64,000 bases of DNA from Minisyncoccota bacterium (GTDB taxonomy: Bacteria; Patescibacteriota; Minisyncoccia; Phycocordibacterales; Phycocordibacteraceae), in contig JBDSUM010000007.1 in the NCBI GenBank assembly GCA_039927695.1, positions 11,700 through 75,699 on the forward strand, read 5' to 3'. Shown piece after piece: positions 714 to 22,425 of this stretch. Made by a program: the position numbers and the translations under genes. The stretch's first letter is position 1; each line of letters opens with the position of its first letter. Below the pieces are notes generated by a model. It did not search any database and had not been told where the DNA came from. It was given only the letters and a program-made list of their open reading frames with translations.

Positions 714-2033
714 TTAAGCACAGAGTTTAATTGCTTTATCGCTAAGCATAATTCTACTCCTTAAGCATCCAAGTAATTCACGCTTTTCAATATCAGCTCC
801 TTCTCGTAGAAGGTATTTTGCATAGTTCCTAATATCAATATCTCCGACCTGGATTTTGGTTTTCGTATTAGCAATAGCTTGCTGAAACTTCTTGAATCTC
901 TCTACTTCGGCCTTGATTTTTTCTTTGATGCCAATCTCGTTAATATCGATAGTATCTATGAGACCTATAAACTGCTCTATAAGATCCGTTTCATTTATAT
1001 ATCCAGACTTACAGTTCACATCCTTGCCCTTACCACAGCCGTAATAGACATGACGGTGAATATTTCCATTCTTTTGTTTCTTGAACTTCTCATCAGCTGA
1101 AATGCTTGAACCACACAGTCCGCATTCCATGAGTCGAGTGAAGGCAAATTCTTTAGTCTCCGCGCGAATGATTGAACGCGTAGTCTGTTCTTGAACTAAA
1201 TCAAATAACTCTTTCGTGATTAGCGGCTCGTGCTTCCCTTGGTACCAACGTCCTGAATTCTTAGGGTATTCAAATACTCCGTAATAGAAGGGGTTTTGAA
1301 GAAGGATATAAATATTGCTTAAACTTAGATTCTTATTCCCGGCAGCGGTCTTGAAATTAAGATCGAACTTGAGCCAGTTATATACCTTACGTCCACTCCA
1401 TTTCTCATATCCTACCTTTTCAAACATCTTCTTAATTATCATCGCTCGATCGGGATCAAGAATACTTTGGCACTTTCTGTCCAGTCGCTGTTCCTTTAAA
1501 TAGCCAGTTGGAGCACGTCCTGGCAGAAGTCCCATTTCAACCCTCGTCTTTAAACCTCTCTTTACATTAATACTCTTGTTGTCGTTTTCGAGCTTCGCTT
1601 GGCTGCAAAGAATCATTAGAAGGAACTTTTCGTTAGGGGAGTTCCTGAAATGCTGTCCGTAAGTGCGAATCTCTAACAATAGCTTCTGATCCATTAAATC
1701 TACGAGCGTCCCTAAGTCACCAGCATTCCTACTTAACCTATCTGGTGCCCAAGTAAGGACAGCATTGAATCGTCCTCTCCTAATGTCTTCGAGTAGCTCC
1801 TGATATACCGGCCGCTGTCCTGAATCTTTGGCTGAATGCGACTCTCTCCGTATATCTATTATTTCTAGATTCTCTCGCTCGGCTATCTGTAGCATTTCTT
1901 TAATCTGCGAATCTATCGAAAGGGCTTGCTTCTCGTCTGATTCGGTAGATTTGCGAGCGTACAGACAGTATTTGATTTTCTCTTCAATGATGACGGGCGA
2001 TAGCCCTATTTGAGAAGTTTCTAATCTTTGCAT
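714..2033 (-). CDS. Large serine recombinase (resolvase/integrase family)
   Basis: N-terminal resolvase motif YARKST with catalytic Ser; recombinase domain; C-terminal Cys-rich zinc ribbon (CGLCG...YYGCGKGKDVNC); 439 aa. Confidence 0.9.
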   Translation of the reverse strand: MQRLETSQIGLSPVIIEEKIKYCLYARKSTESDEKQALSIDSQIKEMLQIAERENLEIIDIRRESHSAKDSGQRPVYQELLEDIRRGRFNAVLTWAPDRLSRNAGDLGTLVDLMDQKLLLEIRTYGQHFRNSPNEKFLLMILCSQAKLENDNKSINVKRGLKTRVEMGLLPGRAPTGYLKEQRLDRKCQSILDPDRAMIIKKMFEKVGYEKWSGRKVYNWLKFDLNFKTAAGNKNLSLSNIYILLQNPFYYGVFEYPKNSGRWYQGKHEPLITKELFDLVQEQTTRSIIRAETKEFAFTRLMECGLCGSSISADEKFKKQKNGNIHRHVYYGCGKGKDVNCKSGYINETDLIEQFIGLIDTIDINEIGIKEKIKAEVERFKKFQQAIANTKTKIQVGDIDIRNYAKYLLREGADIEKRELLGCLRSRIMLSDKAIKLCA

Positions 2034-2037
2034 ATAG

Positions 2038-2340
2038 TTATTTTAATTTACGTAATGCCTCAGCTCGAAGTCTCTCCGTATCTCGAAGTACGGACAAATA
2101 TACCCTCCGACTTTTCTTTGTCCTTGGATGAGTGTTGAGCCAATCGATCAGCTCGTCTGGTACATACGTGGCGAGGGAGCTATAGGCAACTATCAGTTCT
2201 TCTATCCTCTCAAGAATTGCTCGCTTCAGATCCTTCTTGGAATTGGGGAGTAGGGAAATTCTGTTCAGACAGGCAGAGTCGGACTCCTTTGTAAACCGAT
2301 AATGGGCTGCGGTATCTAATATTTTGTCCCTGTCTTCCAC
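2038..2340 (-). CDS. Small hypothetical protein co-transcribed upstream of serine recombinase (possible directionality factor/regulator)
   Basis: 100-aa basic ORF 4 nt upstream of recombinase on same strand; no recognisable motif. Confidence 0.3.
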   Translation of the reverse strand: MEDRDKILDTAAHYRFTKESDSACLNRISLLPNSKKDLKRAILERIEELIVAYSSLATYVPDELIDWLNTHPRTKKSRRVYLSVLRDTERLRAEALRKLK

Positions 2341-2611
2341 CTATTAATTGATGCCAGACCAGGTGGTGGTGCATAGTCTATGCAAAACGAGCGATTCGTA
2401 GCATGGTCGTGGAGGGCTTAGCAGAACAACCAGACTGCGATATTATGAAGAGGTAATACGGGGCTATGTATTACATCAATATGGCCTAAACCGAGCAATT
2501 GCCCGGCATGGCCGAATAACCGCGACCAGCATAGAAAACCCGTCATCAGGGCGCTGGTCGCGTTATCAGGGGAAACTCTGATATGTCCTTCGGGACTCCT
2601 GGTGGCGGGTT

Positions 2612-3331
2612 TTGTGCTACCCACCAGAATTACAAATCGCGACCAGCAATATTATGGATAATCCATCACAGCCTTCTACGAAGGCTACTCACCTTACCCT
2701 AGGTAAAATTATTATTTGGCTTCTGAGTGTCGGACTCTTGGTTTCGGGAATAATATCCCTCTTTACTAACTTCGGCATGGGACTGACCATCATTCTGGCA
2801 AGTTTGGTGATCTTACCACCGCTGACAAAATATCTGAAAGAGAAACATAACTTCTCAATCTCTGGACCACTCAAAATAGTGCTCCTGTTCGGGATCATCA
2901 TGATAGGAGGATTTATTATTAGCCAAGGTAAGGATACGGCTCCTGCTGCTACGGAAACACGTCCATCTGCAGCATATGATGTTCCTTCTCTCCTAGGACT
3001 AAGTCTCAAAGAGCTTGAGGCGAAGCTTGGTACATCCTCATACGATACCGAACCGACAGCACAACAGCTCGCTATCGGTGGAATCGATACATGGGAGAAA
3101 AGCTGGAATAATGGTGACTACAGTCTTATGGCTACGTACGACATAAAGACCAAGAAAGTTACTGACCTCTTCCTTAGTGCAGATACGGATGCCGCATTCA
3201 AGAAATTCGAGGATACTGACAATATTCTTACAGCAGGGAATCTTTCAAAGAACGACTCTCATTACTCGGTTGAATTTGTTAAAGCAAAGAATGGTCCTGG
3301 TTACACAGGAGCAATTGTTCGCCTCAAATAA
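2612..3331 (+). CDS. Membrane protein, 2-3 N-terminal TM helices plus soluble C-terminal domain
   Basis: Hydrophobic stretches at N-terminus; no family recognised. Confidence 0.45.
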   Translation: MCYPPELQIATSNIMDNPSQPSTKATHLTLGKIIIWLLSVGLLVSGIISLFTNFGMGLTIILASLVILPPLTKYLKEKHNFSISGPLKIVLLFGIIMIGGFIISQGKDTAPAATETRPSAAYDVPSLLGLSLKELEAKLGTSSYDTEPTAQQLAIGGIDTWEKSWNNGDYSLMATYDIKTKKVTDLFLSADTDAAFKKFEDTDNILTAGNLSKNDSHYSVEFVKAKNGPGYTGAIVRLK

Positions 3332-3387
3332 CTGATTTGCTCAGAGCATAAAGATTCTCAGGTTACAGTTGAACATTCGAACTAGCT

Positions 3388-4878
3388 TTACCAGGAAAGA
3401 TCGCTCCAGTTCATGCTGTAGACACGAGGTACGCTAGGCGGATCTTGAGAGACGCTATGAACGAGGTTTGAGAATGCGTCGGCAAGGTCGTCATGCTTCT
3501 CAACTCCGAAGTGGACTATCTGCTGGATTAACTGCTCAGCTCCTTCTCGAGGGAACACGACTTTTCCGTCTCTGATTGAATTTGCCGTAAGGACAAGACG
3601 ACTTCGCTTATCGGTGGCACCAGGACGGACGGTCTTAACGTTGTGTACGCCTTCTTCCTTCAATTGTTGTGGCAGTGCTTTCTGATACGCTACATCCTCA
3701 ATAATAAAGATAGGGTATCGCTTATCCGATTCGTAGTAACTCTGTTCCAGAATCTTGCACGTATCTACTGTTTCAGGGAAGTTCAGTCGTTTGTTAATGA
3801 TCTTGGGAAGAATATACAACCGATAGCCTCTCTCAAGTTCATAGAGGAGTCCTGGTACCATGGCGGTATAGTCCGCAGTTGCGCTCTTCGAAATCGCTGG
3901 GTCTATACCAATACGCACTTCACGATACGAGGAATAACCGCTTTTGAATCGAATCGGTGGTGGTATCTCGTCGTAGTACTGGATCCATTCGCGGTAAATT
4001 GCTTGGTCGTCGGCTGGGACGATATTCAGCATATATTCGCGCTGCCAGGCGTACTCGTTTCCGGCTCGTCGCTTTTCGTTTTCAATTTCCTCCATATTTG
4101 AGTACTTACCCGGCCATAGGATTTCTCCGTCTTTTGTTACGAGTGGATACTCTTTGAACACGGCGTCGATTGTGTTTTTCTCAACGCGCTCTTTTAAACG
4201 CATAAGAAGCGAATCCTCGTGAAGTAAGTTACCGATAACAACGATACGTGTAGTGCGATCTCCGGTCGGGATAACCTCTCCAGTGAACCATTGGAAGGTC
4301 TTGTCGCGACCTTCGCGCGTCTTCGTGGAAGCGATATCCTCTACGTCGTCTCCAATGATGAGATCAGGGCGATGCTGGTTGTGACGCAAACCACGGATAC
4401 TCTGCTCACTTGAAGCTGCCGTAATGCGTGCGCCGCGCTCGGCAAATACGAGTGAGAACGAACCCCATTCGTCCGCCTCTTCTTTGAATGGCCCTAAATC
4501 ATCCTTCAACATCGAATTATTCTCTAATTCGTTTCGCAAGTTTCGCATATGCTGCTTCGCTTGGCTCTGTGTCTGACAGAGAATCAGCACGAACTTCTTC
4601 TGTTGTTTTCCGAGGATTGCCCAGATAGGATAAGAAGTTGTAATAATTGTAGACTTACTGCTTCCGCGAAACGCGACTACGAACAAGTTTCCGATGTTCT
4701 CGTCTTCAATCAATGAGATCATCTCTGACTGAAACGGAGCAGTCGCGTATTTAACGTAGTGAGCGAAGTAGAAGTGGAAGAAATACCACAGACTATTTTT
4801 AGTGATTGCTATTCGCACTGCTCGATCCTTCATCATCTTCTCTACTAGTTCCGGTGGAAGCATATTTACCTGGTTCAT
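3388..4878 (-). CDS. Phage terminase large subunit
   Basis: Walker A-like FRGSSKST; ATPase + C-terminal RNase H-like nuclease architecture; 496 aa; directly downstream of a small HTH protein. Confidence 0.85.
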   Translation of the reverse strand: MNQVNMLPPELVEKMMKDRAVRIAITKNSLWYFFHFYFAHYVKYATAPFQSEMISLIEDENIGNLFVVAFRGSSKSTIITTSYPIWAILGKQQKKFVLILCQTQSQAKQHMRNLRNELENNSMLKDDLGPFKEEADEWGSFSLVFAERGARITAASSEQSIRGLRHNQHRPDLIIGDDVEDIASTKTREGRDKTFQWFTGEVIPTGDRTTRIVVIGNLLHEDSLLMRLKERVEKNTIDAVFKEYPLVTKDGEILWPGKYSNMEEIENEKRRAGNEYAWQREYMLNIVPADDQAIYREWIQYYDEIPPPIRFKSGYSSYREVRIGIDPAISKSATADYTAMVPGLLYELERGYRLYILPKIINKRLNFPETVDTCKILEQSYYESDKRYPIFIIEDVAYQKALPQQLKEEGVHNVKTVRPGATDKRSRLVLTANSIRDGKVVFPREGAEQLIQQIVHFGVEKHDDLADAFSNLVHSVSQDPPSVPRVYSMNWSDLSW

Positions 4879-5264
4879 GTTTGGTTTTCAGTTGGTAAGT
4901 GGCCAGCAAGGCGTAACGCCTCACGTACCGTTGCTTCTTGTTCAGGATTCAGCTCTTCCTGTTTCGGTTTCATTTCAACCTCAATTTTGTCTTTGAACTT
5001 TGGGTTACGCTTGCGAAGCCAGAAGGATATGGCGTGCCAGTTCTTCTCACGAATAAGAACGAGGAGTTGGTTCTCACTCATGTCGTTTACTAACGCTTCG
5101 CCGTCAATGAGTGCGGTTTCCATTTCTTGAGCAAACTCAGGGTCATCGTTTTTCCAACGGTACACGCTGTTTCGCGACACACCGACCTTTTCACACGCAA
5201 CTTGTACAATCGGCACCTTACGAAGCTGCTCCAAGAAAGTGTCTTTTACCTTGTTCTTTTTCAT
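4875..5264 (-). CDS. Terminase small subunit-like HTH protein
   Basis: 129 aa; HTH segment VACEKVGVSRNSVYRWK; stop overlaps the start of the large terminase. Confidence 0.55.
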   Translation of the reverse strand: MKKNKVKDTFLEQLRKVPIVQVACEKVGVSRNSVYRWKNDDPEFAQEMETALIDGEALVNDMSENQLLVLIREKNWHAISFWLRKRNPKFKDKIEVEMKPKQEELNPEQEATVREALRLAGHLPTENQT

Positions 5265-6538
5265 ACGCGCTTCGCCTTATTGCCCGTCAGCTTCTCGTAT
5301 CGTTTGATGGCGAGGTCGCAGAACACTGGCTCAAGCTCAACCGCATAGACGCGACGTTTCAACTGCTCGGCCGCAATCATGGTGCTACCGGAACCTGAAA
5401 AGCTGTCGAGAATAATGTCGTTTGGTTTTGTGCAACGGCGAATCGCTTTCTCGTGAAGCTTGGGAGGCTTTGACGTTGCGTGTTCGTAGTCCTTGCCGGA
5501 CAAACGCTTAACCATCCACACGTCGAGATGGTCGAGCGTTTCTTCGATTAGATTATTGCCGGTCGTAATTTCCTTATTCAGTACCTCGTTCAGGTTCTGA
5601 ATAGACTTTGTAATATATGGCTTACCGCGCACGCCATAGACGCAAGGTTCGTAGCACTTATTGAATGCAACTGACGGCACGGGATTCTGGGAATTCTTGA
5701 GCCACAGGCAAACGCGCTTGTTCGCGATACCAAGTTCGCGGTACAGCTCCTGCATAAGGCCGATATAGATCTGGTCGCACCAGTAGAAGACGTGAGTATC
5801 AGCCTTTGCAACAGAAAGGGCAGCGATCATGGTTTTGACGATAAACTCCTTGTATTCAGCGTCGGTGCGGTTATCAAGAACGTTCCCACCATAGTTCTTC
5901 TTGCCACCAATACCGCCGTTGTAGTCGATGTTGATGTTATAGGGCGGATCGCTATATATCATGGACGCACGATCATCACCGAAAAGGCGAGTGAGAACGG
6001 CAGGGTCTGTGGAGCTTCCACAGATAAGGCGGTGTTGGCCGAGCTGAATTAAATCACCGACTTTTGTTACAGGCTCTGTTATCTTCTTAAACTCCTTTTC
6101 TTCGTCGAAGTCGTCGTCTTCAGCTTCAAGGTTCTGCGCCCACAGATCGGATAAATCGCTCTCGTCAAAGCCGCTCTCAAGGAGTAGATCAAGGTCAAAA
6201 GATTTAAGCTTCTCAAGATCCCACTCTCCACTTATGGCATTTGAAGAAATTAAATACTGCTCAAACTCTTCTTTTGTGAGCTTGCGGTTAGGTACTCGTA
6301 CATCGATTTCTTCGTCTCCGCGATCAAGTAGCTGTAGGGCTTTGAGTCTTTGATGTCCGGCGACTACAGTATTGTTGGTATCTATTGCCGGGATCTCGAC
6401 AAGGTTAAATTTCTGAAGACTCTTCTTCAGGTCTTGTAATTGCTTATTAGTAAGTTTGCGAGGGTTCGCCTCGTATGGCAGGAGAGAGCTGACTTTACGT
6501 TGCTCTGTGTGCCAGGAAAGTTTTGCGCGTATGGGCAT
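5261..6538 (-). CDS. ParB-like nuclease domain fused to N6-adenine/N4-cytosine DNA methyltransferase (beta class)
   Basis: N-terminal ParB box (VVAGHQRLKA); motif IV SDPPYN precedes motif I FSGSGST (beta-class order); typical phage ParB-MTase fusion. Confidence 0.85.
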   Translation of the reverse strand: MPIRAKLSWHTEQRKVSSLLPYEANPRKLTNKQLQDLKKSLQKFNLVEIPAIDTNNTVVAGHQRLKALQLLDRGDEEIDVRVPNRKLTKEEFEQYLISSNAISGEWDLEKLKSFDLDLLLESGFDESDLSDLWAQNLEAEDDDFDEEKEFKKITEPVTKVGDLIQLGQHRLICGSSTDPAVLTRLFGDDRASMIYSDPPYNINIDYNGGIGGKKNYGGNVLDNRTDAEYKEFIVKTMIAALSVAKADTHVFYWCDQIYIGLMQELYRELGIANKRVCLWLKNSQNPVPSVAFNKCYEPCVYGVRGKPYITKSIQNLNEVLNKEITTGNNLIEETLDHLDVWMVKRLSGKDYEHATSKPPKLHEKAIRRCTKPNDIILDSFSGSGSTMIAAEQLKRRVYAVELEPVFCDLAIKRYEKLTGNKAKRV

Positions 6539-6603
6539 GAAAGCACCATAAACAACTTCGGTGCAGTCTATGTTTCAGATAAAGAGATCCCTTATCTGTA
6601 TAG

Positions 6604-7395
6604 CTATATTTCTCCTAGTCGCTTTCGTGTTCTTGTCACGATTGTACGGATAAGGTTTGTGGTTAATTTCGGCCATTGATTCGCTAATTCTGAATATATG
6701 AACATATCGCTCGCCATCATCGGATCAGTGTGGCGTTTCTTACCATCCATTCTAAACTTTTTGTACTCTGTATATACTTGCAAATCGCGCTCCATATTCC
6801 GCCATGCCTTATTCTTTTCGATGCGATCTTTGAAGAGAAACTCTTGTTCCTTCTTAATCCAGTCCCAATGAGTTTGGAAATCCTCTTTAGTGGTGTGTGG
6901 AAATATCTCTACGAGAAGTTCCCATGTATCGTCTTTCTTTCGGCGCATACTCACCTGAAATGGGGACGTGTATAGCTCCTTTTGCCCAAAAAAGAAGTAC
7001 ATCTCCAAGAAATCCTTGAATGCCGGATTATCCTTCAATCCATAGTGGTTCAGTATTTCTCCAAATACCTGACCGTATATAGGTGGGAGGTATTCTTTAC
7101 GGAAGGATTCTAGCTCGTTGTACTCATCCAAATTGAGCATTTCTTTGCCACAAGTGATCTGCTTAGCACGCTCCTTGAACTCAGAACCATTCTCCATTTC
7201 CCCATACCGCTTCCAGAACCGATCGTTCCACTCTAGGTATTCCGAATACTTCTTGAAAGGCTCCTTAGAAATCGGACAGCCTATTTCTTTGAACCTAACC
7301 TTGAGCCAAGCCTCTTTCTTGAGGAACCACTCGTCTCTCAGTAGGGCAGCTGCTTTGTGGTAGTCCTGGTTATGTATGGTGCGACTTTTGGGCAT
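6604..7395 (-). CDS. Hypothetical protein
   Basis: 263-aa ORF in prophage-like segment; no recognised domain. Confidence 0.45.
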   Translation of the reverse strand: MPKSRTIHNQDYHKAAALLRDEWFLKKEAWLKVRFKEIGCPISKEPFKKYSEYLEWNDRFWKRYGEMENGSEFKERAKQITCGKEMLNLDEYNELESFRKEYLPPIYGQVFGEILNHYGLKDNPAFKDFLEMYFFFGQKELYTSPFQVSMRRKKDDTWELLVEIFPHTTKEDFQTHWDWIKKEQEFLFKDRIEKNKAWRNMERDLQVYTEYKKFRMDGKKRHTDPMMASDMFIYSELANQWPKLTTNLIRTIVTRTRKRLGEI

Positions 7396-7502
7396 ATGGC
7401 TAAGTATAAGACTCTCTTAGAACAAGCTGAAACTTCTTAGCTTCACATATAAACCACCCTTATTCATTATCATTAGACATTATCGGCTAAACAAGCTAAT
7501 AT

Positions 7503-7856
7503 ATGAAAAACAACATGACCTTAGGGACATTTATCAGAGGAAAGAGAGACGAGCTTGATTTATCGCTCACGGAGTTTGCCAAGCTAATTGGTAAAACAGC
7601 TCCGTTTCTATATGACATTGAATTAGATAGACGACATCCATCTGATGAAGTTCTAGATTTGATTGCACAAAACTTAAAGGTATCGCGAGTTGAATTAGAT
7701 AAGCACGATACTCGTCCTCCAACTAAAAATATTAGAACGCAAATACAAGCAGACCCGCAGTACGCTTTTGCATTTAGAAAGACAGCAGATAGTGGCTTAA
7801 GTCCAGCTGAGATAATTGCTGCAATTGAAAAGGCTCAGAAGAGTAAGCGGGGTTAA
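7503..7856 (+). CDS. XRE-family HTH transcriptional regulator
   Basis: HTH_3-like LSLTEFAKLIGKTAPFLYDIE near N-terminus; paired with downstream ImmA-like peptidase. Confidence 0.75.
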   Translation: MKNNMTLGTFIRGKRDELDLSLTEFAKLIGKTAPFLYDIELDRRHPSDEVLDLIAQNLKVSRVELDKHDTRPPTKNIRTQIQADPQYAFAFRKTADSGLSPAEIIAAIEKAQKSKRG

Positions 7857-7864
7857 CAACTTTT

Positions 7865-8557
7865 ATGAAAAATATTCGCGCATTCGAAGGTCCCCATAAA
7901 GATCGGCCTTTTTATGAGAATCACGAGATTGAGCGAATGTGTATTGAAGAGTTGAGTACATACAATCTGCTCCCAGATGAACCGTCGCCAATTCGTATCG
8001 AACGATATATAGAGAAGCGACTCGGCATTACTCCAGCTTACGAAGAGATACCATCTAACATTCTTGGATTCACAAAGTTTGGCACCGCTGGAGCAGAAGC
8101 AATCGTCGTATCACGTTCGCTTCAAGAAGACGGTACTCAATCTTCTGAGCGGCGTGTACGTACGACACTCGCCCATGAAGCTGGGCACGCGTTACTCCAT
8201 GCACATCTTTTTATGAAGCCGACGAGGAAGATGAAAGAACTTTTTGATGACGAACACACAGACATGTCGAAGGTGCTTTGCCGCGACATCGTTGAGAAGA
8301 CCTCTGAAGACGCTCCAAAGTATTCATGGTGGGAATTTCAGGCGAATGCTGCCATGGGTGCACTTCTACTACCCGAGAACCTTTTTCGTACGGCGGCCAA
8401 TCCCTTTTTTGAGTCCACGGGGCTACTCGGCGATACCCCCGTCATCACGCAAGAGGGAAGGGGTGAGCTCGAACGCTCGCTCGCAGACGTATTCGACGTA
8501 AATCCTATCGTCGTACGACATCGTGTCCAGCAGGTGTACTTCCCTAACCGTAAGTAA
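7865..8557 (+). CDS. ImmA/IrrE-family zinc metallopeptidase
   Basis: HEAGHALLH (HExxH) motif in a ~230-aa protein immediately after the XRE regulator. Confidence 0.8.
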   Translation: MKNIRAFEGPHKDRPFYENHEIERMCIEELSTYNLLPDEPSPIRIERYIEKRLGITPAYEEIPSNILGFTKFGTAGAEAIVVSRSLQEDGTQSSERRVRTTLAHEAGHALLHAHLFMKPTRKMKELFDDEHTDMSKVLCRDIVEKTSEDAPKYSWWEFQANAAMGALLLPENLFRTAANPFFESTGLLGDTPVITQEGRGELERSLADVFDVNPIVVRHRVQQVYFPNRK

Positions 8558-8589
8558 TAGGCCATATCTGTGCCGCCCTTCCACAATAC

Positions 8590-8907
8590 TTGCATCTTCG
8601 GCAAAAGAAGCTAATATTTATGATAACGCAGAGGAACCCCTCATTTAAAAGCGCCATAGATATGCCCAATTACCATGTTACGAATCCGAAAGGATCACCA
8701 GTTTGGAGAGTAGTGAAGGACAATGCTTCACGAGCATCAGCTACAGCCAGTACACAGAAGGAAGCCGAAAAGATTGCGAAGCAGATTACCCATAACGCCG
8801 GAGGAGGGGAAGTCCGAATTCATAAGCCGAACGGGGGACCGATTCGCGATAGCGATACGGTCAAGCCCGGGAATGATCCCTATCCACCAGTAGACAAGAA
8901 ACACTAA
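8590..8907 (+). CDS. DUF2188-like small protein
   Basis: MPNYHV...W.V...GA....T..EA...A...A.....GGEVRIH..NG.IRDSDT pattern; true start probably the internal Met near 8663. Confidence 0.5.
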   Translation: MHLRQKKLIFMITQRNPSFKSAIDMPNYHVTNPKGSPVWRVVKDNASRASATASTQKEAEKIAKQITHNAGGGEVRIHKPNGGPIRDSDTVKPGNDPYPPVDKKH

Positions 8908-8912
8908 AATAT

Positions 8913-9797
8913 ATGCATAACGTACCATCGTCGGTTGTCGAACCGCTCCTGCGAGGACCTTCGCCACGAAAGATCACTCAGGTTGCGCAGCTACAGAATG
9001 ATATTCAAACTCTGCTCGGCTCTACACACCATACGTTCCTTCAGGGCTCTTACAAAAATAATACGGCACCATCTGATATCAACGATGTCGATATTGTCGC
9101 TGTACGGCGAACTACGTATAGCGGCGTACATTCACCTCAACGAAACAACCAGCATGATCGTATAGCTTGGGATTCTATATTTTCTGAACTTGAAATACTT
9201 TTAGACGGACATCCAGAGTACGACTGGACTGTAGAGCGTGGAGACAAGTGTATAAAGCTCACTGGTCCGTTTAATGTCGACGTTATTCCCGCGGTCGTCT
9301 ACAGTACTCATGACGAAGATCCAATAGTGGTCTATTCAATGCGTGATGGGCGAGAAATCGTAAATCATCCCCGAACGCACTATGAGAATGGAGTCGAGAA
9401 ACACGCTTCAACAGGAGAGCTCTATAAGCCAACCGTACGTATGTTTAAGAACTGGAAACAGAATCACTACGGACAGGACAAGAGTATGGTCTCATCCTTT
9501 AAGATTGAAGCTTTGGTTAACGCAGTCGACGATGCGGAGTTCGTTGAAGATCCGGTCGCACGATTCATCCTCGTGGGTGCAAGTATCCTCGAGCTTATGA
9601 ACATGCGTTCGTTAGTACCGACGCGTATCATGAGTGTGTGCGGAAATGAGGATATTACTGAGCACTGGGATTTGGGCGCGCGACGTCAGTTCGTCGCTCA
9701 GCTATCCGAATCTGTGAATCACGCACGGCTTGCATTCTCTGCCCCGACAGCAGCGGTTGCTACACAGCATTGGAATAATGCTTTCAACGTCTACTAG
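8913..9797 (+). CDS. Pol-beta-superfamily nucleotidyltransferase, SMODS/CD-NTase-like
   Basis: GS-x9-D-x-D motif (QGSYKNNTAPSDINDVDIV) with downstream acidic residue (FNVDVIP); 294 aa, too large for a minimal MNT; next gene is a 2TM protein. Confidence 0.6.
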   Translation: MHNVPSSVVEPLLRGPSPRKITQVAQLQNDIQTLLGSTHHTFLQGSYKNNTAPSDINDVDIVAVRRTTYSGVHSPQRNNQHDRIAWDSIFSELEILLDGHPEYDWTVERGDKCIKLTGPFNVDVIPAVVYSTHDEDPIVVYSMRDGREIVNHPRTHYENGVEKHASTGELYKPTVRMFKNWKQNHYGQDKSMVSSFKIEALVNAVDDAEFVEDPVARFILVGASILELMNMRSLVPTRIMSVCGNEDITEHWDLGARRQFVAQLSESVNHARLAFSAPTAAVATQHWNNAFNVY

Positions 9798-9798
9798 T

Positions 9799-10422
9799 AT
9801 GAAGAAACATCGCACAACCTATAAGTTTTACTTGTTATTCACGCTAATCACTATTGGCCCCGCAACGTGGGTCGCTGGAAAAGTCGGAGAGATAATGTCT
9901 CTTGCGATCAACTCAAATAATCCACTGCTTGCATGGGGTGTCGTCCAACCACCTACGGTAGTGCTTGTTCTTGGTATATTCTTCCTCATCTACGAACGCT
10001 GGATTTGGAAGACTCCGCCATTCTCATGGATTCACTTCCCGTACCTTGGTGGCCGATATGAAGGCTCAGTAGTATCTAGCTACGATAACGGAGAATATCC
10101 TGTCGTGCTTGAAGTGCGACAGAGCCTACTTACAACCTTGGTTTGTCTCTACACGCCTCGGTCGGCTTCGTATAGCATTACTGCAGATGTCGGCACGAAT
10201 GAAAACGAAAATGAGTCCCTTGCTTACATTTACCGCAATACGCCTCGAACCGTAACCGATAATCTGGATATGACTTCTCATTACGGTATGGCCGTTCTGG
10301 AATATTTTGGCGATACATCTTCGCTCAAAGGTTTCTACTTCAATGACCCAAGGGATCGCGGCCGTCACGGCACTCTTGAGTGTAAGCGTGTTAGTCGTCA
10401 ACGTAAGAAGCGTTTTGAGTAA
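9799..10422 (+). CDS. Two-TM effector-like protein (SLATT-like architecture)
   Basis: ATG 1 nt after the NTase stop; two TM helices then ~110-aa soluble tail; the 9730 start in the ORF track overlaps the NTase and is rejected. Confidence 0.45.
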   Translation: MKKHRTTYKFYLLFTLITIGPATWVAGKVGEIMSLAINSNNPLLAWGVVQPPTVVLVLGIFFLIYERWIWKTPPFSWIHFPYLGGRYEGSVVSSYDNGEYPVVLEVRQSLLTTLVCLYTPRSASYSITADVGTNENENESLAYIYRNTPRTVTDNLDMTSHYGMAVLEYFGDTSSLKGFYFNDPRDRGRHGTLECKRVSRQRKKRFE

Positions 10423-10427
10423 TTAAG

Positions 10428-10835
10428 ATGAATACCGCCCCCTCGCCATTCGGACCAGATTACATAAAGCAGACGGTAGATCTGCTTACTACCGGTATTA
10501 CTCAAGCGACTGCCCATGACTATCGGATAGGATGGGATATTCTTCTCTCATTCCTCGCACACCATTGGCTCGGAACTCTTGGGGTACTGCTGGCTATCCT
10601 CGCGTATGCAGTACTTAGATATCTAATCACGGGACGATGGCGGGTACTTGGAAGTGTCCTCTATAACTATGTCTACTTTTTCATTATGTTCCTTATAGGA
10701 CTGATAGGAGGACCGGAACTTTACGCGAACGATTACTTCCCAATAATCGCTACTATTGTTTATGTAGTCTCATTCACTGTAGTTGGATTTATCCTTTTAA
10801 CTACAGGCGTACGCTCGCCATACGGAAGAAGGTGA
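10428..10835 (+). CDS. Small 3-TM membrane protein
   Basis: Three hydrophobic helices; 5 nt after the preceding gene, same operon. Confidence 0.45.
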   Translation: MNTAPSPFGPDYIKQTVDLLTTGITQATAHDYRIGWDILLSFLAHHWLGTLGVLLAILAYAVLRYLITGRWRVLGSVLYNYVYFFIMFLIGLIGGPELYANDYFPIIATIVYVVSFTVVGFILLTTGVRSPYGRR

Positions 10836-10949
10836 CAGTGCGATGTAACTATTTATGTGACACTCAAAACCTCGTTCCTGTGTCACTTTTGTAACTTTCC
10901 TAGGTGCACGAGACGCGTCGTTTTGAATTTTGAAAACTCACCAAACGGA

Positions 10950-12449
10950 CTAAGCAGGGCTTGATTCTATACGGTTCGAACTCGAGACGGCCAGCAAAGT
11001 TTCAAAATCAGCATTTTTAGGTGTTAGTGCGAGTAGGTTGTATGGGCTTTTGAATTGTATCTGCGCCATATTTCCATTTTCAATGGTCATGTTCGAAAGT
11101 AGTTTTTGAAGCATTTCTCGCTTTTCTACATCATCAACAAGCAAATACTTTTCTGCGGCTCTACTGCCTTCTATAAACACGTTTTGTATTTGTTCGAAAG
11201 TTACAGCGGCTACTCCATTTTTTGATTCAATTTCGTCTATTTGTTTCTGAAGTTCAACTCGTTTATTAGCTATCTCCTGCATCTTTTCTTGAAAGAGTTC
11301 TTTGCGGATTAAGCCAGAGCCAAAGCCATCAGTGAGACGAGATTCTGCTTCGGAAAGGGAAGCAAGTTCTTTGTTTAAGTTCTCTCGAGCAGAAGCGACA
11401 TAGTCAGTCTTTGTTTGGTAGCGAGTTTTGTATGCTTCACCGCAAATGGAAATAAGCTCCTCATCAAATTTAAGTTCAAGGAACATTTTTGAAAGGAGGG
11501 TATCTATTGCTTCAGAGCGTATGTATTTCTTTTTTTGATCACAACCCTGTTTACCGTTCGTACAATAGTAATACTGATGCCCACGCTGAGTATCGGCAGT
11601 AATGGCGCAACCACAGGATTCGCACCGAAGGTATCCTCGAGCAGAGTAGAAATTTCTTTTAGGCCGTGGGTGCTTACGAGCATGGAGGATGTCATCACAT
11701 GTATTAAAGAGCGAAACTGAAACGATAGCTTTATGTTTCCCAGGGTATACAACGCCATCTCGCTCCATGAGTCCGCAATAGAACTTATTTATAAAGAAGC
11801 GATGTATCTGATTCTTGAATACCTTTCCTCCCGTACGAGTTCGAAGACCTTCCTCATACAAGACCTCTACGATTTGTTGAAGCGTGTAGCCACCAGTCGC
11901 ATAGAGATTAAAAGCACGTACTACATACGGAGATAATTTCTTATCAATTTTGATACTCTTAGTTGCTTTATCATTTAGATATCCAAATGGTGCATGATTC
12001 GGCCATTCTCCCCGAGCTAACTTTTCTCGATTACCACGCTTCACTAGTTCGCTTAGATCACGAACGTACTGCGTAGCCATTGCTTGTTCAATACTCATGA
12101 GAAGAACATTGTCAGAAGGACTATAGTTCCGATCAAAAGTGCGGATGTTCTTTATGTTCCCATTCTGTAGAAGCCATTGAATTTGTCCGCCATCTACAGG
12201 GTTGCGAGTAAGGCGATCAACTTTCCAGCATAGAATAGCATCAGCTTTTCCTTTAGAAATATCTTTAAGCATTTGGTTAAAGATAGGGCGACCAGGTTCT
12301 TTAGCAGAACGACTTTCTCGAAGAGTGGAGACAATTTCTAATCCTTCTCGTTTAGCAACACCAATAAGTTCACGTTCTTGAGATTCAAGCGAAAGAACCT
12401 GCTTGTCTTCAGTATCAGTAGACTTACGGCAATAGAGGATGTACTTCAT
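10950..12449 (-). CDS. Large serine recombinase
   Basis: YCRKSTDTEDKQ catalytic Ser motif; recombinase domain; zinc ribbon CESCGC...YYYCTNGKQGC; coiled-coil C-terminus; 499 aa. Confidence 0.9.
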   Translation of the reverse strand: MKYILYCRKSTDTEDKQVLSLESQERELIGVAKREGLEIVSTLRESRSAKEPGRPIFNQMLKDISKGKADAILCWKVDRLTRNPVDGGQIQWLLQNGNIKNIRTFDRNYSPSDNVLLMSIEQAMATQYVRDLSELVKRGNREKLARGEWPNHAPFGYLNDKATKSIKIDKKLSPYVVRAFNLYATGGYTLQQIVEVLYEEGLRTRTGGKVFKNQIHRFFINKFYCGLMERDGVVYPGKHKAIVSVSLFNTCDDILHARKHPRPKRNFYSARGYLRCESCGCAITADTQRGHQYYYCTNGKQGCDQKKKYIRSEAIDTLLSKMFLELKFDEELISICGEAYKTRYQTKTDYVASARENLNKELASLSEAESRLTDGFGSGLIRKELFQEKMQEIANKRVELQKQIDEIESKNGVAAVTFEQIQNVFIEGSRAAEKYLLVDDVEKREMLQKLLSNMTIENGNMAQIQFKSPYNLLALTPKNADFETLLAVSSSNRIESSPA

Positions 12450-13228
12450 GGTGAGAGAATGTCTTCAAGAGGGTCGTAGTCGGGCTTAGGCAAAATGTAC
12501 GTCTTCTTAGTCATATTGCCAAGAAAGTCATGTTTCGTTTCCCATTCTTTTACAGGTTCACGTTCTAAGAACGCATACTTAAGCTGTTCAGCATGTTCTC
12601 CGCGAATAATCGTTTCTTTAGGGAACCCGTGCGATATACGAAGGAGTCTCATAGCAGTAAACATTATTTCTCCACCGCATTTGGTGAGGTATTTGGCCAG
12701 ATAACCTGCCAGTGCTGGAGAACCGTCAGTTTGGAGGACATCAACGAAACCCTCTCCCCAAAGGGTAGCCAAGGTTCTCGTTTGGCGTTCCGTCCCGTCT
12801 TGAAGTCGGCGTTTACCTTGGCGCGTATCTCCGAGATGCAATGGCACGTTAAAGAGAAGCCCATGAAAGTGGATTCGACCTCGAGGGGAGAGTTCAGGAA
12901 TAAAGAGGGATTGCGCACCAGGAAATTTACGGCGCAACCGCACTTGGAAGTCGCGTAGGGAATCGTTTGCGTATGAAGCATCGGAAGCGTCTCCAGCGAA
13001 GGTGAAGGTAGCCAGGAGCGGCACCCCAAATAGCGCAATGCCAGCATGCACCCTCCGCACACATATTTGTGCGGTTCGGCGAAGATTATCGGATCGCCTA
13101 GGTTGGTGTACAAAATCCCTCTCTCGAGGACGACGTAGCCGTACTTTGGGGGCAGGCGTTTTCTCGAATTCAGTGATTTCAACGACTTGACCATATTTCT
13201 TGAAGACAACGGGCATGTTTAAAATCAC
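12446..13228 (-). CDS. Rolling-circle replication initiator (HUH endonuclease, two-Tyr superfamily I)
   Basis: Motif 1 ATFTFAG; motif 2 HFHGLLF (HUH); motif 3 GYLAKYLTK (Y-x-x-K-Y as in phiX174 gpA / Microviridae VP4 / pC194 Rep); stop overlaps the recombinase start. Confidence 0.65.
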   Translation of the reverse strand: MILNMPVVFKKYGQVVEITEFEKTPAPKVRLRRPRERDFVHQPRRSDNLRRTAQICVRRVHAGIALFGVPLLATFTFAGDASDASYANDSLRDFQVRLRRKFPGAQSLFIPELSPRGRIHFHGLLFNVPLHLGDTRQGKRRLQDGTERQTRTLATLWGEGFVDVLQTDGSPALAGYLAKYLTKCGGEIMFTAMRLLRISHGFPKETIIRGEHAEQLKYAFLEREPVKEWETKHDFLGNMTKKTYILPKPDYDPLEDILSP

Positions 13229-13464
13229 TAACTGTGAGGGGATATCAAGTCAGGCGCTGGCGCGCCTGCCCCCTCGTCGCTTAAGCGAGCGTCGGTGTCA
13301 GGCGCAACCCCGCGCTCCCCACAAGCCGCAAAAACCGCCATGGACGAATAGAGTTCAGCAAATTGACCCAGATACTCATCTGCGGTCTCATCGCTAATCT
13401 CAAGCCCCAGACGGGCTGAGAAGTAGCGCTTAGTTCGATCAATTAAATGCTCGGTAAATTCCAT
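13228..13464 (-). CDS. Small hypothetical protein upstream of Rep in a GC-rich patch
   Basis: 78-aa ORF overlapping the Rep start by 1 nt; local GC clearly above surroundings. Confidence 0.3.
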   Translation of the reverse strand: MEFTEHLIDRTKRYFSARLGLEISDETADEYLGQFAELYSSMAVFAACGERGVAPDTDARLSDEGAGAPAPDLISPHS

Positions 13465-15471: not shown

Positions 15472-16539
15472 ATGCCCAGAATATGGACCGCTGAGGCCGT
15501 TGTCTCAGCGATTAAAACACTTCAAGATAATGGAGAGGCTCTTGATCTAACCTCAATCAACCAAGCTCACCGAAATCTACTTTGGGCTGCTACGAAATAT
15601 CATGGTACCTGGAGAAAGGCTGTTGAGGCATGTGGGATTGAATATTCATCAGTCTCACGAATTGCAATTGATCGCCAGTCCTGGGATAAGGAAAAGATAA
15701 TTGCGACACTGAAGAGTTTGTACGAACAGGGTCTTCCCTTGAATTCCAATTACGTACAGACAAAGCAACAACGTCTCTTTGGTGCTGCAACTAAATATTT
15801 CGGTGGTTGGCCTCAAACAGTGGAAGCTGCTGGTCTGAATTATGACAGGTTGCGAAAGGTAAAACTGCGCAACTGGTCCATAGAAGTAATCATTGAAGCA
15901 GTCATACATAGAGCACACTCCGAGAAATCGATAAGTGGGGCTGTTGTCTATGAAGAAGATAGAGGTCTATATCAAGCAGCTAAAAGACACTTGGGTAAAG
16001 GTGGTTGGGCTAAGGCACGAGTACTTGCAGGTTTCGCTCCAATCGATCCAGATCCCAAAAGGAAATGGACTGAAAAGAGTGTGACTGAAGAGATTCAGCG
16101 TCTTCATGCAAATGGAGTACAGCTTTACACCCAAGCCCTACAACGGAGCGAATTCAGTTATATTCTTGCAGCTGGTCGGAAAGTATTCGGAACATGGGCA
16201 TGCGCAATTGAACGCGCTAGCTTAAATTACGCTGAAATTCGAAAGGGCCGCAAGAACTTCTGGACACGTGAAGAAGTACTCCGAGGAATTAAAGGTCTTG
16301 AGGCGCAAGGTGTCCGCCTTAGTTTAAAGGAAGTAAGAGTTGGTCGTAGTGGTCTTATTGCAGCTGCGATAAAGTATTTCGGTTGCTGGAGTCAAGCGGT
16401 GGAAGCCGCAGGAATTCAGTACCGTTTACATTGCCAGACCTGGTCAACAAAAGCATGGCTGCGTCGCATGCATGTAGATGAATACAACGCGACTCTTGAA
16501 ACTTCACGAACACTTGCTAAGAAAAGGAGAATGCAATGA
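15472..16539 (+). CDS. Tandem-repeat protein (homing-endonuclease-associated-type ~50-aa repeats, no nuclease domain)
   Basis: Five repeats with core a.KYfGsW..AvEaAGi.Y (ATKYHGTWRKAVEACGIEY, ATKYFGGWPQTVEAAGLNY, AIKYFGCWSQAVEAAGIQY and two more). Confidence 0.5.
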   Translation: MPRIWTAEAVVSAIKTLQDNGEALDLTSINQAHRNLLWAATKYHGTWRKAVEACGIEYSSVSRIAIDRQSWDKEKIIATLKSLYEQGLPLNSNYVQTKQQRLFGAATKYFGGWPQTVEAAGLNYDRLRKVKLRNWSIEVIIEAVIHRAHSEKSISGAVVYEEDRGLYQAAKRHLGKGGWAKARVLAGFAPIDPDPKRKWTEKSVTEEIQRLHANGVQLYTQALQRSEFSYILAAGRKVFGTWACAIERASLNYAEIRKGRKNFWTREEVLRGIKGLEAQGVRLSLKEVRVGRSGLIAAAIKYFGCWSQAVEAAGIQYRLHCQTWSTKAWLRRMHVDEYNATLETSRTLAKKRRMQ

Positions 16540-17582
16540 GTATTTCAGCTATCACTAAGCACGGGTTCAAGTTGATTCCGGTTGCTGATATCCAAGAAAC
16601 TGTGGTGCAACTTCGCACCCATTATGCCAATGAGCCTCTTCAAGAACTGGGCAATTCTCTCGAAGATGATGGACTACTTCAGCCCATTGTCGTTGCCCCT
16701 GGTGATGAATTCAAATTCGAACTCATTATCGGCTCACGCCGTCTTCGGGCAGCACGTCATAAGGGTATGGAAGAAATTCCAGCCCTCGTGATTGAGGAGA
16801 CCAGTCCTCTGAATTATCTGCTGATTGCACTCGGCGAGAACCTTCATCGAGAAGACCTGAATCCATTTGAGGAGGCACACGCGTTCCTCCGTCTTATGAA
16901 GGATTACGGGCTTGGTGTGCAGGAAGTAGCCGTAAGAACGCATAAGGGCGAAGCGTTCGTTCGGAAGCGGATGGAATTGCTCAGTATGCCTGAGAATGTT
17001 CAGGCAATGATTGCTGAGAAGAAACTCGCCCTCCACTTCGTCCAAGCACTTGCTCGTTTGCCTACGGGTGAACAACAAGTGTATTACGCGCAGAAAGCTC
17101 TCTCTGAGGGTCTGTCAATCAGCGAGCTTCGGCAGTTGATTACAAGTGACGCGGGCGAGATGGCACCAAGAACAAAGCGGGATTTCTCCGCTGATAAAGT
17201 TCGTGTTCGTATCGATATGTTCGCTCGCTGGATGAAGCGACTCTCGGCGAACAGTGCCTTCAACAGAAGCCTCAATGCAGAAGAACGGGCTGCACTCGCG
17301 CGATCTGTCCAATCTCTGGATGGAGAGCTACGTGTTGCTCGTTCGGTGTTTGGCGAGTGGGTAGGTCGCACACCTGTGCGCTCGATCCCCAATCTGAGCA
17401 ATATCGTTGATGATCCCGATAACCATGGTGACCAGTGGTCACTGCGGCATATCGAAATGATTACCGCCAACGATCGCCCTTCTGACGATATGCTTGCAAC
17501 CAAGCTCGGCAGAAGTGTTGCTGCTATTCGTGGTATGCGATCCAAGATGCAAAGAGAAAGGAAGGATCGAAAAACCGGGTAA
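16536..17582 (+). CDS. ParB-like N-terminal domain protein
   Basis: ParB box LQPIVVAPGDEFKFELIIGSRRLRAARHKG; start overlaps the previous stop (ATGA). Confidence 0.75.
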   Translation: MSISAITKHGFKLIPVADIQETVVQLRTHYANEPLQELGNSLEDDGLLQPIVVAPGDEFKFELIIGSRRLRAARHKGMEEIPALVIEETSPLNYLLIALGENLHREDLNPFEEAHAFLRLMKDYGLGVQEVAVRTHKGEAFVRKRMELLSMPENVQAMIAEKKLALHFVQALARLPTGEQQVYYAQKALSEGLSISELRQLITSDAGEMAPRTKRDFSADKVRVRIDMFARWMKRLSANSAFNRSLNAEERAALARSVQSLDGELRVARSVFGEWVGRTPVRSIPNLSNIVDDPDNHGDQWSLRHIEMITANDRPSDDMLATKLGRSVAAIRGMRSKMQRERKDRKTG

Positions 17583-17606
17583 TACCGGAATATCGATCTC
17601 AACCTT

Positions 17607-17638
17607 AGACCCCTCCAAAAAGAGGGGTCTATTTTTTA
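17607..17638 (+). terminator. Rho-independent terminator after the ParB-like gene
   Basis: agacccctc-caaaaa-gaggggtct perfect 9-bp stem followed by attttttat. Confidence 0.8.
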
Positions 17639-17642
17639 TATA

Positions 17643-18224
17643 TTGTGTTATCCTGTTTACAGACAAGACATCAAGAGCATAGAGGTGCAAAGGGTTCTGG
17701 CCCAATACTCTATCCGCAACCTGCCTATAATCGGTAAGGTGCGAATTCCAGCCCGTAAGGGAAGATGTAACCAACCGAACAGACGGCCATCTCCCGGAGG
17801 TGGTCTTTTGTCCTTTATAAGGAGAAGTATCGTGACTGGTCATATTAAAATTATTGATCTGGAAAATGACCTTATTCCCGAGCTGGGAAATAAGAAAGAT
17901 ACCTTTCGTTCCAAGCAGGTATTTCGTTGCCCAGTATGTACATCGCTAACGAACAATATTGAAATTCGTGGCGGTTTTAAAGGTTGGCGCGCAAGCCCAT
18001 TTCCTATATGTCCGCATAGGGAACAGGAATGGCACGTCTTACTTAGAGTAAAGATTCGGCTTTCAGACCCTGCTCATCCCGTTTCTTACAGAAAGGAGCT
18101 TGAAGTTGAAATTGATTCATTAAGGTTAAACGCCAAGGATGATATATCGGGATCAGCAGATCTTTCATGTGAGAGGAAATTTCCCGCTACAAAGCTCATC
18201 ATAGAAGATAGAGGATATGACTAG
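17643..18224 (+). CDS. Hypothetical protein with Cys/His cluster (CPVC...CPH); likely shorter than the ORF
   Basis: ORF between two rho-independent terminators; possible Zn-binding residues; start uncertain (GTG near 17826 possible). Confidence 0.3.
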   Translation: MCYPVYRQDIKSIEVQRVLAQYSIRNLPIIGKVRIPARKGRCNQPNRRPSPGGGLLSFIRRSIVTGHIKIIDLENDLIPELGNKKDTFRSKQVFRCPVCTSLTNNIEIRGGFKGWRASPFPICPHREQEWHVLLRVKIRLSDPAHPVSYRKELEVEIDSLRLNAKDDISGSADLSCERKFPATKLIIEDRGYD

Positions 18225-18226
18225 TA

Positions 18227-18256
18227 CAAGGGGGTCAATTGACCCCCTTGTTTATT
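18227..18256 (+). terminator. Rho-independent terminator (perfect palindrome)
   Basis: caagggggtcaattgacccccttg followed by tttatt. Confidence 0.7.
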
Positions 18257-18270
18257 AATAGATAGCTAGA

Positions 18271-18300
18271 TTTGTTCGAATATCGTCCCAGACGGCCAGC
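18271..18300 (+). repeat. Conserved intergenic repeat, copy 3 (consensus-like)
   Basis: tttgttcgaatatcgtcccagacggccagc. Confidence 0.85.
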
Positions 18301-18303
18301 AAA

Positions 18304-19050: not shown

Positions 19051-19074
19051 TTTTCTTAATATAAAAGATATATA

Positions 19075-19104
19075 TTTGTTCGAATACCGTCCCAGACGGC
19101 CAGC
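19075..19104 (+). repeat. Conserved intergenic repeat, copy 4
   Basis: tttgttcgaataccgtcccagacggccagc. Confidence 0.85.
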
Positions 19105-19144
19105 CAAGTTGAGATAGGTTCTGGCGTCCGAGACGCATTGATAT

Positions 19145-19193: not shown

Positions 19194-19255
19194 ACTCGAC
19201 GCTGGATCTTGTGTCGATAGTCCTGTAAGATATAGAATGTAAGTAGTTATTTTTC

Positions 19256-22413: not shown

Positions 22414-22425
22414 TAATGAATATTC

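Follow-up and report, generated by a model that had tools for sequence, protein, structure and literature searches.

The 64,000-nt stretch of contig JBDSUM010000007.1 analysed here (hereinafter the window) comes from a metagenome-assembled Candidatus Paceibacterota genome. Six open reading frames (ORFs) between positions 7503 and 10835 lie on the + strand, separated in order by gaps of 8, 104, 5, 1 and 5 nt, the 104-nt gap being counted from the corrected start of the third gene. They encode an XRE-family helix-turn-helix (HTH) repressor, an M78-family metallopeptidase, a DUF2188 protein, a nucleotidyltransferase, a membrane protein with two predicted transmembrane (TM) helices (2TM protein) and a small protein with three hydrophobic segments (3TM protein). 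Two promoter-like sites, P1 and P2, precede the first and the third gene, respectively (Table 1). Judged by domain matches, a predicted fold and comparison with related loci, the locus is probably a type I (I-B) CBASS (cyclic-oligonucleotide-based system of antiphage signalling), an abortive-infection operon placed under a CapH/CapP-like switch and carried as cargo by a small integrative element.

Table 1. Genes and predicted signals of the CBASS locus, in window coordinates
Feature	Position	Strand	Evidence and remarks
P1 promoter-like site (TAGACA-17-TAATAT)	7474..7502	+	promoter scan 9/12; holds box copy 1; abuts capH ATG
capH-like XRE-family HTH repressor, 117 aa	7503..7856	+	HTH_3 9.4e-11; PADLOC capH 2e-7
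capP-like ImmA/IrrE-family Zn metallopeptidase, 230 aa	7865..8557	+	Peptidase_M78 PF06114 5.5e-7; PADLOC capP 2.8e-9
P2 promoter-like site (TTGCAT-16-TAATAT)	8590..8617	+	hexamers picked by eye; holds box copy 2
DUF2188 gene, 81 aa	8662..8907	+	PF09954 1.4e-16; PADLOC candidate PDC-S16
cdnE, clade-E-like CD-NTase, 294 aa	8913..9797	+	PADLOC cyclase 2.1e-30; AlphaFold2 model; Foldseek
cap15 effector, 207 aa	9799..10422	+	PF18153 7.4e-20; PADLOC 2TM effector 2.4e-37
3TM small membrane protein, 135 aa	10428..10835	+	three hydrophobic segments; no family match
terminator-like hairpin and T-rich tail	10903..10929	+	one consensus match, weak; ends operon, precedes convergent recombinase gene

An earlier reading of the letters alone (the sequence-only reading) had placed the six ORFs at the positions found here, and two gene starts have been corrected. 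Specifically, the DUF2188 gene starts at 8662 and not with the TTG ORF from 8590, as its homologues are nearly all 81 aa long and begin with MxNYHV. The effector gene starts at the ATG at 9799, 1 nt after the cdnE stop codon (TAG T ATG); the 230-aa ORF from the TTG at 9730 would overlap the nucleotidyltransferase gene. The capH-like gene may have an alternative start at the ATG at 7515, which is used by one public gene call (L002; comparison loci are given as L numbers).

The 294-aa protein is, by sequence comparison and predicted fold, a genuine cGAS/DncV-like nucleotidyltransferase (CD-NTase) with intact catalytic residues and predicted activity. It contains LQGSYKNNTAPSDINDVDIV. The catalytic residues G45 and S46, D58 and D60, and D123 are invariant across 28 homologues and line up with the motifs of Rhodothermus CdnE (RmCdnE) and Elizabethkingia CdnE (EmCdnE). 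The Pfam SMODS family, to which the sequence-only reading had pointed, reaches 16.9 bits, short of its cut-off of 26.5. The PADLOC cyclase models, the CdnE matches in the PDB and the predicted fold carry the assignment. Twenty-nine PADLOC 'oligonucleotide-cyclase' models match the protein, and its best solved relatives by sequence are RmCdnE (1.7e-17) and EmCdnE (1e-15), which rise to 4e-30 and 1.6e-28 with a profile of the 28 sequences and are followed by the Cap15-associated LpCdnE, EfCdnE and ClCdnE. The AlphaFold2 model has a predicted local distance difference test score (pLDDT) of 94.4. When it is compared with the PDB by Foldseek, ranks 1–13 are all CdnE, followed by CdnD, CdnC, CdnB, DncV and cGAS, and the top 50 consist of CD-NTases plus cGAS (6E0K, E 1.5e-15, TM score 0.69). 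The five best sequence matches are all CdnE, a closeness to clade E that reflects matches rather than a phylogeny with clade references. The locus of EmCdnE itself was retrieved as a 34%-identical relative (L054).

The sequence-only reading had named a match to the MNT/HEPN or AbiEii families as the result that would undo this assignment. A toxin–antitoxin nucleotidyltransferase of the MNT/AbiEii type would share the generic Pol-beta GS...DxD motif, the one feature in its favour. However, no AbiEii, MNT or HEPN match was found in Pfam, NCBIfam or PADLOC, the full-length fold fits CD-NTases, and the partner gene encodes Cap15. With family searches and fold comparison both against it, the probability of this identity is negligible.

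Residue N151 is the lid-1 asparagine; it aligns with the asparagine of VVNYP in RmCdnE and of YNWP in LpCdnE and is conserved in 24 of 28 homologues. The lid-1 asparagine recognises the acceptor uracil in RmCdnE, LpCdnE and ClCdnE (PMC10442399), and, given the alignment of N151, one uridine or more is probably present in the product. The (R/Q)xW donor-site motif of lid 3, which marks CdnEs that make cyclic di-pyrimidines (PMC10442399), is half present as E250-H-W252: W252 is invariant and aligns with the RKW of EfCdnE, and position 250 is variable in the family.

The 2TM protein is, by its domain matches, Cap15, with two predicted TM helices and a C-terminal beta-barrel that would serve as the receptor of cyclic dinucleotides. 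PF18153 (Cap15_CD_rec) scores 71.9 bits, where the cut-off is 31.2, residues 81–199 match 7N34, a crystal structure of Cap15 (1.6e-8), and the PADLOC 2TM effector models match over the full length. One hydrophobic segment is clear at about residues 42–66; a weaker one at about residues 9–28 is below the Kyte–Doolittle threshold and was picked by eye, and the Cap15_TM family reaches 21.4 bits, below its cut-off of 28.2. The sequence-only reading had correctly seen a membrane effector in this protein and had placed it with SLATT; no SLATT family appears at E ≤ 0.1 in a Pfam scan of either membrane protein.

In 59 of 80 related CdnE loci, all drawn from reference genomes, the gene right after the cyclase encodes a Cap15 homologue, and Pfam and PADLOC give no match to Cap2, Cap3, HORMA or TRIP13 families in the operon or its flanks. 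A cyclase with Cap15, in an order that recurs in most of these loci, therefore places the system in type I (I-B), and the minimal CBASS layout proposed before holds for CdnE and Cap15. Its nearest experimentally studied analogues are the type I-B systems of Staphylococcus schleiferi (CdnE03–Cap15; PMC10686824) and the LpCdnE, EfCdnE and ClCdnE operons (PMC10442399). The window shares with them a two-gene core in the same order, with Cap15 immediately after the cyclase, a clade-E-like cyclase in which the catalytic residues are intact and the lid-1 asparagine is present, and an effector with an N-terminal TM region and the Cap15 beta-barrel. It differs from them in the regulator cassette and DUF2188 gene upstream, in the extra 3TM gene downstream, and in its setting, namely a host from the Candidate Phyla Radiation (CPR) and a terminase-bearing mini-element. 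Its cyclase is also distant from the solved CdnEs (18–26% identity over structural alignments) and has the (R/Q)xW motif by half.

The 3TM gene, which the sequence-only reading had included in the system, is best treated as a real gene that is probably co-transcribed here but is a locus-specific passenger rather than a conserved CBASS component. Co-transcription is suggested by the 5-nt gap after cap15 on the same strand. The protein has no family match in Pfam, PADLOC, NCBIfam or PHROGs. Eleven homologues were found, ten at 66–79% identity and one at 40%, so that one might take it for a second membrane effector, or for a partner or immunity factor of Cap15, in a three-component CBASS variant. 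Both the tight spacing and the conservation of the gene speak for such a role. However, no homologue lies beside any of the 80 related CdnE loci or the 16 ORFs with a CdnE-profile match in the DUF2188 survey described below, and homologues do lie beside unrelated genes: in L009 the adjoining ORFs are unannotated, with an ABC transporter, HEPN_AbiU2 and a diversity-generating retroelement within a few kilobases; in L011 the neighbours are DUF4268 and DUF2130; and in L013/L014 the homologue sits in the cargo region of a related element with TerL, TerS and ParB-methylase genes and without CBASS. We therefore regard an integral role of the 3TM protein as very improbable.

The first two genes encode an HTH protein and an HExxH M78 peptidase that adjoin the CBASS operon. 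The capH model of PADLOC matches the repressor over residues 3–104, and the protein consists of an N-terminal HTH followed by a C-terminal region of about 50 aa that contains AFAF/RK. A PDB sequence search returned weak matches only, of the DdrO/PezA type. The AFAF/RK motif lies at residues 88–93, about 25 residues past the HTH, and recalls the F82/R83 site at which CapP cleaves E. coli CapH, a likeness drawn without an alignment to E. coli CapH. In the peptidase, HEAGH occupies residues 104–108, and an insertion of about 45 aa after it carries Cys139. The Peptidase_M78 domain ends at residue 221 of 230, and the capP profile is matched only at positions 19–123 of 242, its N-terminal half.

In the canonical arrangement, CapH/CapP is divergent from the CBASS operon, and CapP is composed of peptidase, HTH-like and GAF domains (bioRxiv 10.1101/2022.04.27.489752; 10.64898/2026.05.16.725639). 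The mechanism of CapH/CapP and its association with DUF2188 were described by Lau et al. 2022 (bioRxiv 10.1101/2022.04.27.489752). The window pair resembles this system (Lau et al. 2022; Calloji et al. 2026) in that an XRE HTH protein and an HExxH M78 peptidase stand beside CBASS and match the PADLOC models, in the presence of DUF2188, as in some CapH/CapP-regulated operons, and in the cysteine-bearing insertion after HExxH, which, as far as the sequence alone can tell, sits where CapP has its cysteine-switch loop. Such a loop occurs in 33% of CapPs according to the CapH/CapP literature. Unlike the shared promoter of the canonical systems, the promoter of the window is duplicated.

The two promoter regions contain a common element. 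P1 and P2 align over about 60 nt of upstream sequence, and within this region lies a 20-nt box. The pattern TCGGCWAAASAAGCTAATAT occurs exactly twice in 64 kb (0 expected), a count that must be read with the pattern having been built from these two sites, so that independent support comes from its conservation in another contig (L112). Copy 1, TCGGCTAAACAAGCTAATAT, occupies 7483–7502 and abuts capH; copy 2, TCGGCAAAAGAAGCTAATAT, occupies 8598–8617, 44 nt upstream of the DUF2188 ATG. Both copies cover the spacer and the −10 hexamer of their promoter-like sites. L112, a 2-kb metagenome contig, has capH (90% identity), capP (85%) and then DUF2188 in the same order as the window. Its boxes are 20/20 and 19/20 identical amid otherwise diverged intergenic DNA. 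Specifically, about 47 nt at P1 are 100% conserved while the sequence further upstream has diverged, and at P2 a 27-nt core is perfectly conserved between diverged flanks. The gene after DUF2188 in L112 encodes an MBL-fold protein, not a cyclase. Thus, capH–capP–[box]–DUF2188 is a unit that is placed before different cargos. Two shorter operator candidates, AAGCTAAT and RAAGCTAAK, were not enriched over shuffled sequence, and only the 20-nt box was significant.

The most plausible role of the XRE/M78 pair is that of a CapH/CapP-like regulator of the CBASS operon rather than of a lysogeny switch, because the duplicated, conserved box is common to the pair and to the DUF2188–CBASS operon and because the cassette includes DUF2188. 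The sequence-only reading had taken it for a neighbouring pair of the lysogeny type, and this does not agree with the shared box or with the tendency of the pair to travel with DUF2188. The pair could nonetheless be the element's own ImmR/ImmA-type switch, controlling excision, replication or packaging, with CBASS as an independent, constitutively expressed moron next to it. ImmR/ImmA pairs do control integrative and conjugative elements and prophages (bioRxiv 10.1101/2022.04.27.489752), the island has two serine recombinases, TerL/TerS and Rep, and the peptidase resembles ImmA in being short and having a single domain, which leaves no space for a GAF domain. Indeed, ImmR/ImmA of ICEBs1 and phi105 and DdrO/IrrE belong to the same superfamily of pairs, in which the repressor is cleaved by the M78 peptidase, and the window pair, like ImmA, sits on a mobile element. 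Unlike these systems, the window ties its operator-like box to a defence operon rather than to excision or packaging genes, and its cassette travels with DUF2188 and defence cargos. The box stands before capH and DUF2188 only and was found neither near the recombinase, terminase and Rep genes nor elsewhere in the island, where other, undetected operators are possible. The capH–capP–DUF2188 cassette recurs with both boxes before another cargo in L112. Relatives with the same backbone and CdnE–Cap15 (L007, L021, L028) have no such regulator; therefore, the pair is not part of the element backbone. Finally, in L005 (Magasanikbacteria) a canonical divergent capP–capH pair stands beside DUF2188–CdnE–Cap15. 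On this evidence an element-level switch is unlikely. Searches with phmmer and iterated profiles seeded with the window CapH and CapP returned no relatives among the CdnE loci, not even from L005 with its Pfam HTH and M78 matches, because the proteins are too diverged for that approach.

Several observations weigh against a CapH/CapP-controlled type I-B operon or limit what it can predict. The pair is co-directional with the operon and not divergent from it. By its length of 230 aa, the peptidase has no room for a GAF domain, and the published groove for single-stranded DNA between peptidase and GAF therefore cannot exist as described; it also has no match in the PDB sequence search. Because the peptidase is not a canonical CapP, the activating signal may differ, RecA dependence of the kind reported for ImmA being one possibility. 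CapH is only presumed to bind the box: dyad symmetry within it is weak at best, and a repeat search of both promoter regions yielded no convincing palindrome. The promoter scan did not flag P2, whose −35 hexamer is poor (3/6). Since the (R/Q)xW motif is only half present, the exact product of CdnE is not predictable. With these points taken into account, a type I-B CBASS operon under a CapH/CapP-like switch is still the probable reading of the locus, that is, a system of a known kind with a predicted variant of the regulatory architecture.

The DUF2188 gene stands first in the operon behind P2, and it recurs as the conserved leader of defence cassettes with predicted damage control. Its protein has 623 detected homologues, with 64–86% identity among the matches listed and metagenome matches down to 62%, from Patescibacteria, Acidobacteria, Bacteroidota and others; over the same set the adjacent cyclases diverge to about 30%. 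A sequence search of the PDB with DUF2188 gave no match. The surroundings of DUF2188 were surveyed in 80 metagenome loci and six loci from protein look-ups, and the 62 survey loci with at least 700 bp of upstream sequence were classified. A regulator is adjacent to DUF2188 in 46 of the 62 (about three quarters), where the counts were made by hand and are not independent, some loci being near-duplicates. A LexA-like repressor composed of a winged HTH and an S24 domain is found in 29 loci (20 co-directional with a gap of ≤31 nt or an overlap, 9 divergent), an HTH+M78 pair in 13 (11 divergent, 2 co-directional) and a divergent HTH gene only in four; the remaining 16 loci have no adjacent regulator, one of them having an HTH+M78 pair at a distance of more than 1 kb upstream. 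The cargos are variable: in addition to CdnE–Cap15, they include other SMODS enzymes (L102; L096, weak), Shedu SduA_C with TIR and HEPN_AbiV (L095), DUF8370/8371 (L098), an SNF2/ResIII helicase (L141) and the MBL-fold gene of L112.

With a regulator in 46 of 62 loci and a variable cargo, DUF2188 therefore tracks the regulator and not the cargo, and by this comparison it belongs to a regulatory cassette rather than to CBASS. One could instead see in DUF2188 a component specific to CBASS, such as a phage sensor or an activator of the cyclase, since its gene lies 5 nt upstream of cdnE and directly precedes a CdnE gene in the window, in L005/L019, L020, L087/L089 and L099 and in about 10 metagenome loci. 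However, a protein 62–86% identical precedes Shedu/TIR/HEPN, DUF8370/8371, an SNF2-type helicase, an MBL-fold gene and different SMODS enzymes, most CdnE–Cap15 loci have no DUF2188, and the constant partner is the upstream regulator. A CBASS-specific DUF2188 is thus quite unlikely. Operons with DUF2188 were already named among the CapH/CapP-associated systems by Lau et al. (bioRxiv 10.1101/2022.04.27.489752); what the present comparison adds is that the regulator is swapped, being LexA-like in some loci and of the CapH/CapP type in others, and that DUF2188 is independent of the cargo.

The cassettes of the LexA-like type (L020, L063, L089, L095, L099 and many metagenome loci) share with the window the 81-aa leader, a cleavable repressor upstream and, often, CdnE–Cap15 as cargo. 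They differ in that their regulator is a self-cleaving LexA-type protein, whereas the window has a two-protein HTH/M78 pair. The LexA-like gene lies directly upstream of DUF2188 and the cargo on the same strand in L020 (5957–6703), L063 (5682–6305), L089 (5966–6613), L095 (4136–4990) and L099 (4323–4997). L085 has a LexA-like repressor (5290–5937) with a 303-aa ORF in the place of DUF2188. The LexA-like repressor and the HTH/M78 pair are interchangeable upstream of DUF2188. We know of no description of LexA-type CBASS regulators.

Two further variants were seen around DUF2188. In L063 (Chitinophagaceae), a DUF3892 gene (6582–6875; 6e-12) lies between DUF2188 and the cyclase, and both families were tied to CapH/CapP operons by Lau et al. 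(bioRxiv 10.1101/2022.04.27.489752). In L096, L097, L117 and L118, an operon of DUF2188 and genes for proteins of 169, 347 and 232 aa recurs behind a divergent HTH gene. The 347-aa protein has a weak SMODS match (0.003) and also matches the CdnE profile, and from these matches the four-gene operon may be an undescribed CBASS-like variant.

The following sequence of events is proposed for the window. Domain identities, the cassette and the boxes come from sequence, fold and comparison, and from these we infer repression, derepression, trigger, product and killing. In the uninfected cell, CapH would occupy the box over the −35/−10 spacer of both promoters and keep its own operon and the DUF2188–cdnE–cap15–3TM operon low. 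A signal linked to damage or infection would activate the M78 peptidase, which would cleave CapH, possibly at AFAF/RK, and transcription would rise. A phage cue, which by analogy with Ssc-CdnE03 could be a structured phage RNA, would then cause CdnE to make a cyclic dinucleotide. Binding of this dinucleotide to the barrel of Cap15 would lead to Cap15 oligomers, membrane disruption and cell death before phage release. The pairing of Cap15 with CdnE is known from other systems (PMC10442399, PMC10686824). A trigger of the cabRNA type from the island's own terS/terL was also considered, and nothing was found in its favour.

The core of CdnE and Cap15 adds nothing new to CBASS biology other than being a common cargo of mobile elements in CPR/Patescibacteria. 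The main interest of the locus is its regulation, as one compact, testable example brings together two promoter boxes, a peptidase that is short and GAF-less, and DUF2188 as leader gene, and the comparative data indicate a modular cassette in which DUF2188 follows the regulator and not the cargo. Earlier papers only listed DUF2188 as defence-associated. We tentatively propose, as a possibility somewhat short of even, that DUF2188 is a functional, cargo-independent part of a portable cassette of cleavable repressor and DUF2188 that gives diverse defence systems, among them CBASS with various cyclases, Shedu/TIR/HEPN, helicase-nucleases and MBL-fold genes, damage- or infection-inducible control. 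In this role it might, for instance, be an anti-repressor or provide feedback, or it might serve as adaptor to some cellular partner with universal conservation. If true, this would explain the 62–86% identity of DUF2188 across phyla in spite of swapped cargos and regulator types. The twist of the window on this cassette is the GAF-less CapP-like peptidase together with a promoter box in two copies, which takes the place of the divergent promoter that is usual. The window makes two questions testable, namely the role of DUF2188 and the sensing of a signal by an ImmA-like peptidase that has no GAF domain.

The locus lies in an island at about 0.7–13.5 kb with a GC content of 42–51%, compared with 37–39% to its right; GC does not resolve its border on the left. 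No tRNA genes or att repeats were identified in the window, and the borders of the island therefore rest on GC and gene content. The island encodes two large serine recombinases, TerL (phrog_38, 1e-87), a TerS-like protein, a ParB/N6_N4 methylase and a rolling-circle Rep, and no capsid, portal or tail family was matched among the ORFs scanned. In at least 11 reference genomes, a module of serine recombinase, TerL, TerS and ParB-methylase lies beside CdnE–Cap15, a recurrence that favours a compact family of elements over random decay. The sequence-only reading had called the surroundings a prophage remnant: the island is indeed mobile and phage-related, the recurrence of the module does not point to decay, and the term is acceptable as shorthand.

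This compact Patescibacteria element, composed of recombinase, TerL, TerS-like and ParB_N-N6_N4 methylase genes with no structural genes recognised, is present at 714–6538 of the window and in L007, L016, L020, L021, L022, L027, L028, L030, L085, L089 and L013. Its cargo slot usually holds CdnE–Cap15; in L013 it holds the 3TM homologue. The element could be a satellite-like or packaging-hijacking family of CPR bacteria. In the window it also contains a full-length LOOT RNA (Rfam RF03000) at 2483–2597 on the + strand (69.8 bits; gathering score 46.4). This RNA is flanked by an ORF of 100 aa and a membrane-like one of 239 aa, with the recombinase and terminase genes close by. LOOT RNA was not found in six related elements.

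Downstream of the CBASS operon, at 10950–13464 on the − strand, the gene for the second serine recombinase, a protein of 499 aa, overlaps that of a rolling-circle Rep (REP_ORF2-G2P, 5e-11), followed by a 78-aa ORF. This segment has the highest GC content (51%) and may be a small integrated replicon of its own, lying in tandem with the terminase element. Further to the right, 15472–31478 encodes an HNH-repeat protein, ParB, a C5 DNA methylase, a 475-aa protein that matches no Pfam family at E ≤ 0.001, an SNF2 helicase, a restriction-like NOV_C protein, an SF1 helicase, a third serine recombinase and an EcoRI-type methylase. By this gene content, the CBASS operon lies inside a larger predicted island of defence and mobilome genes.

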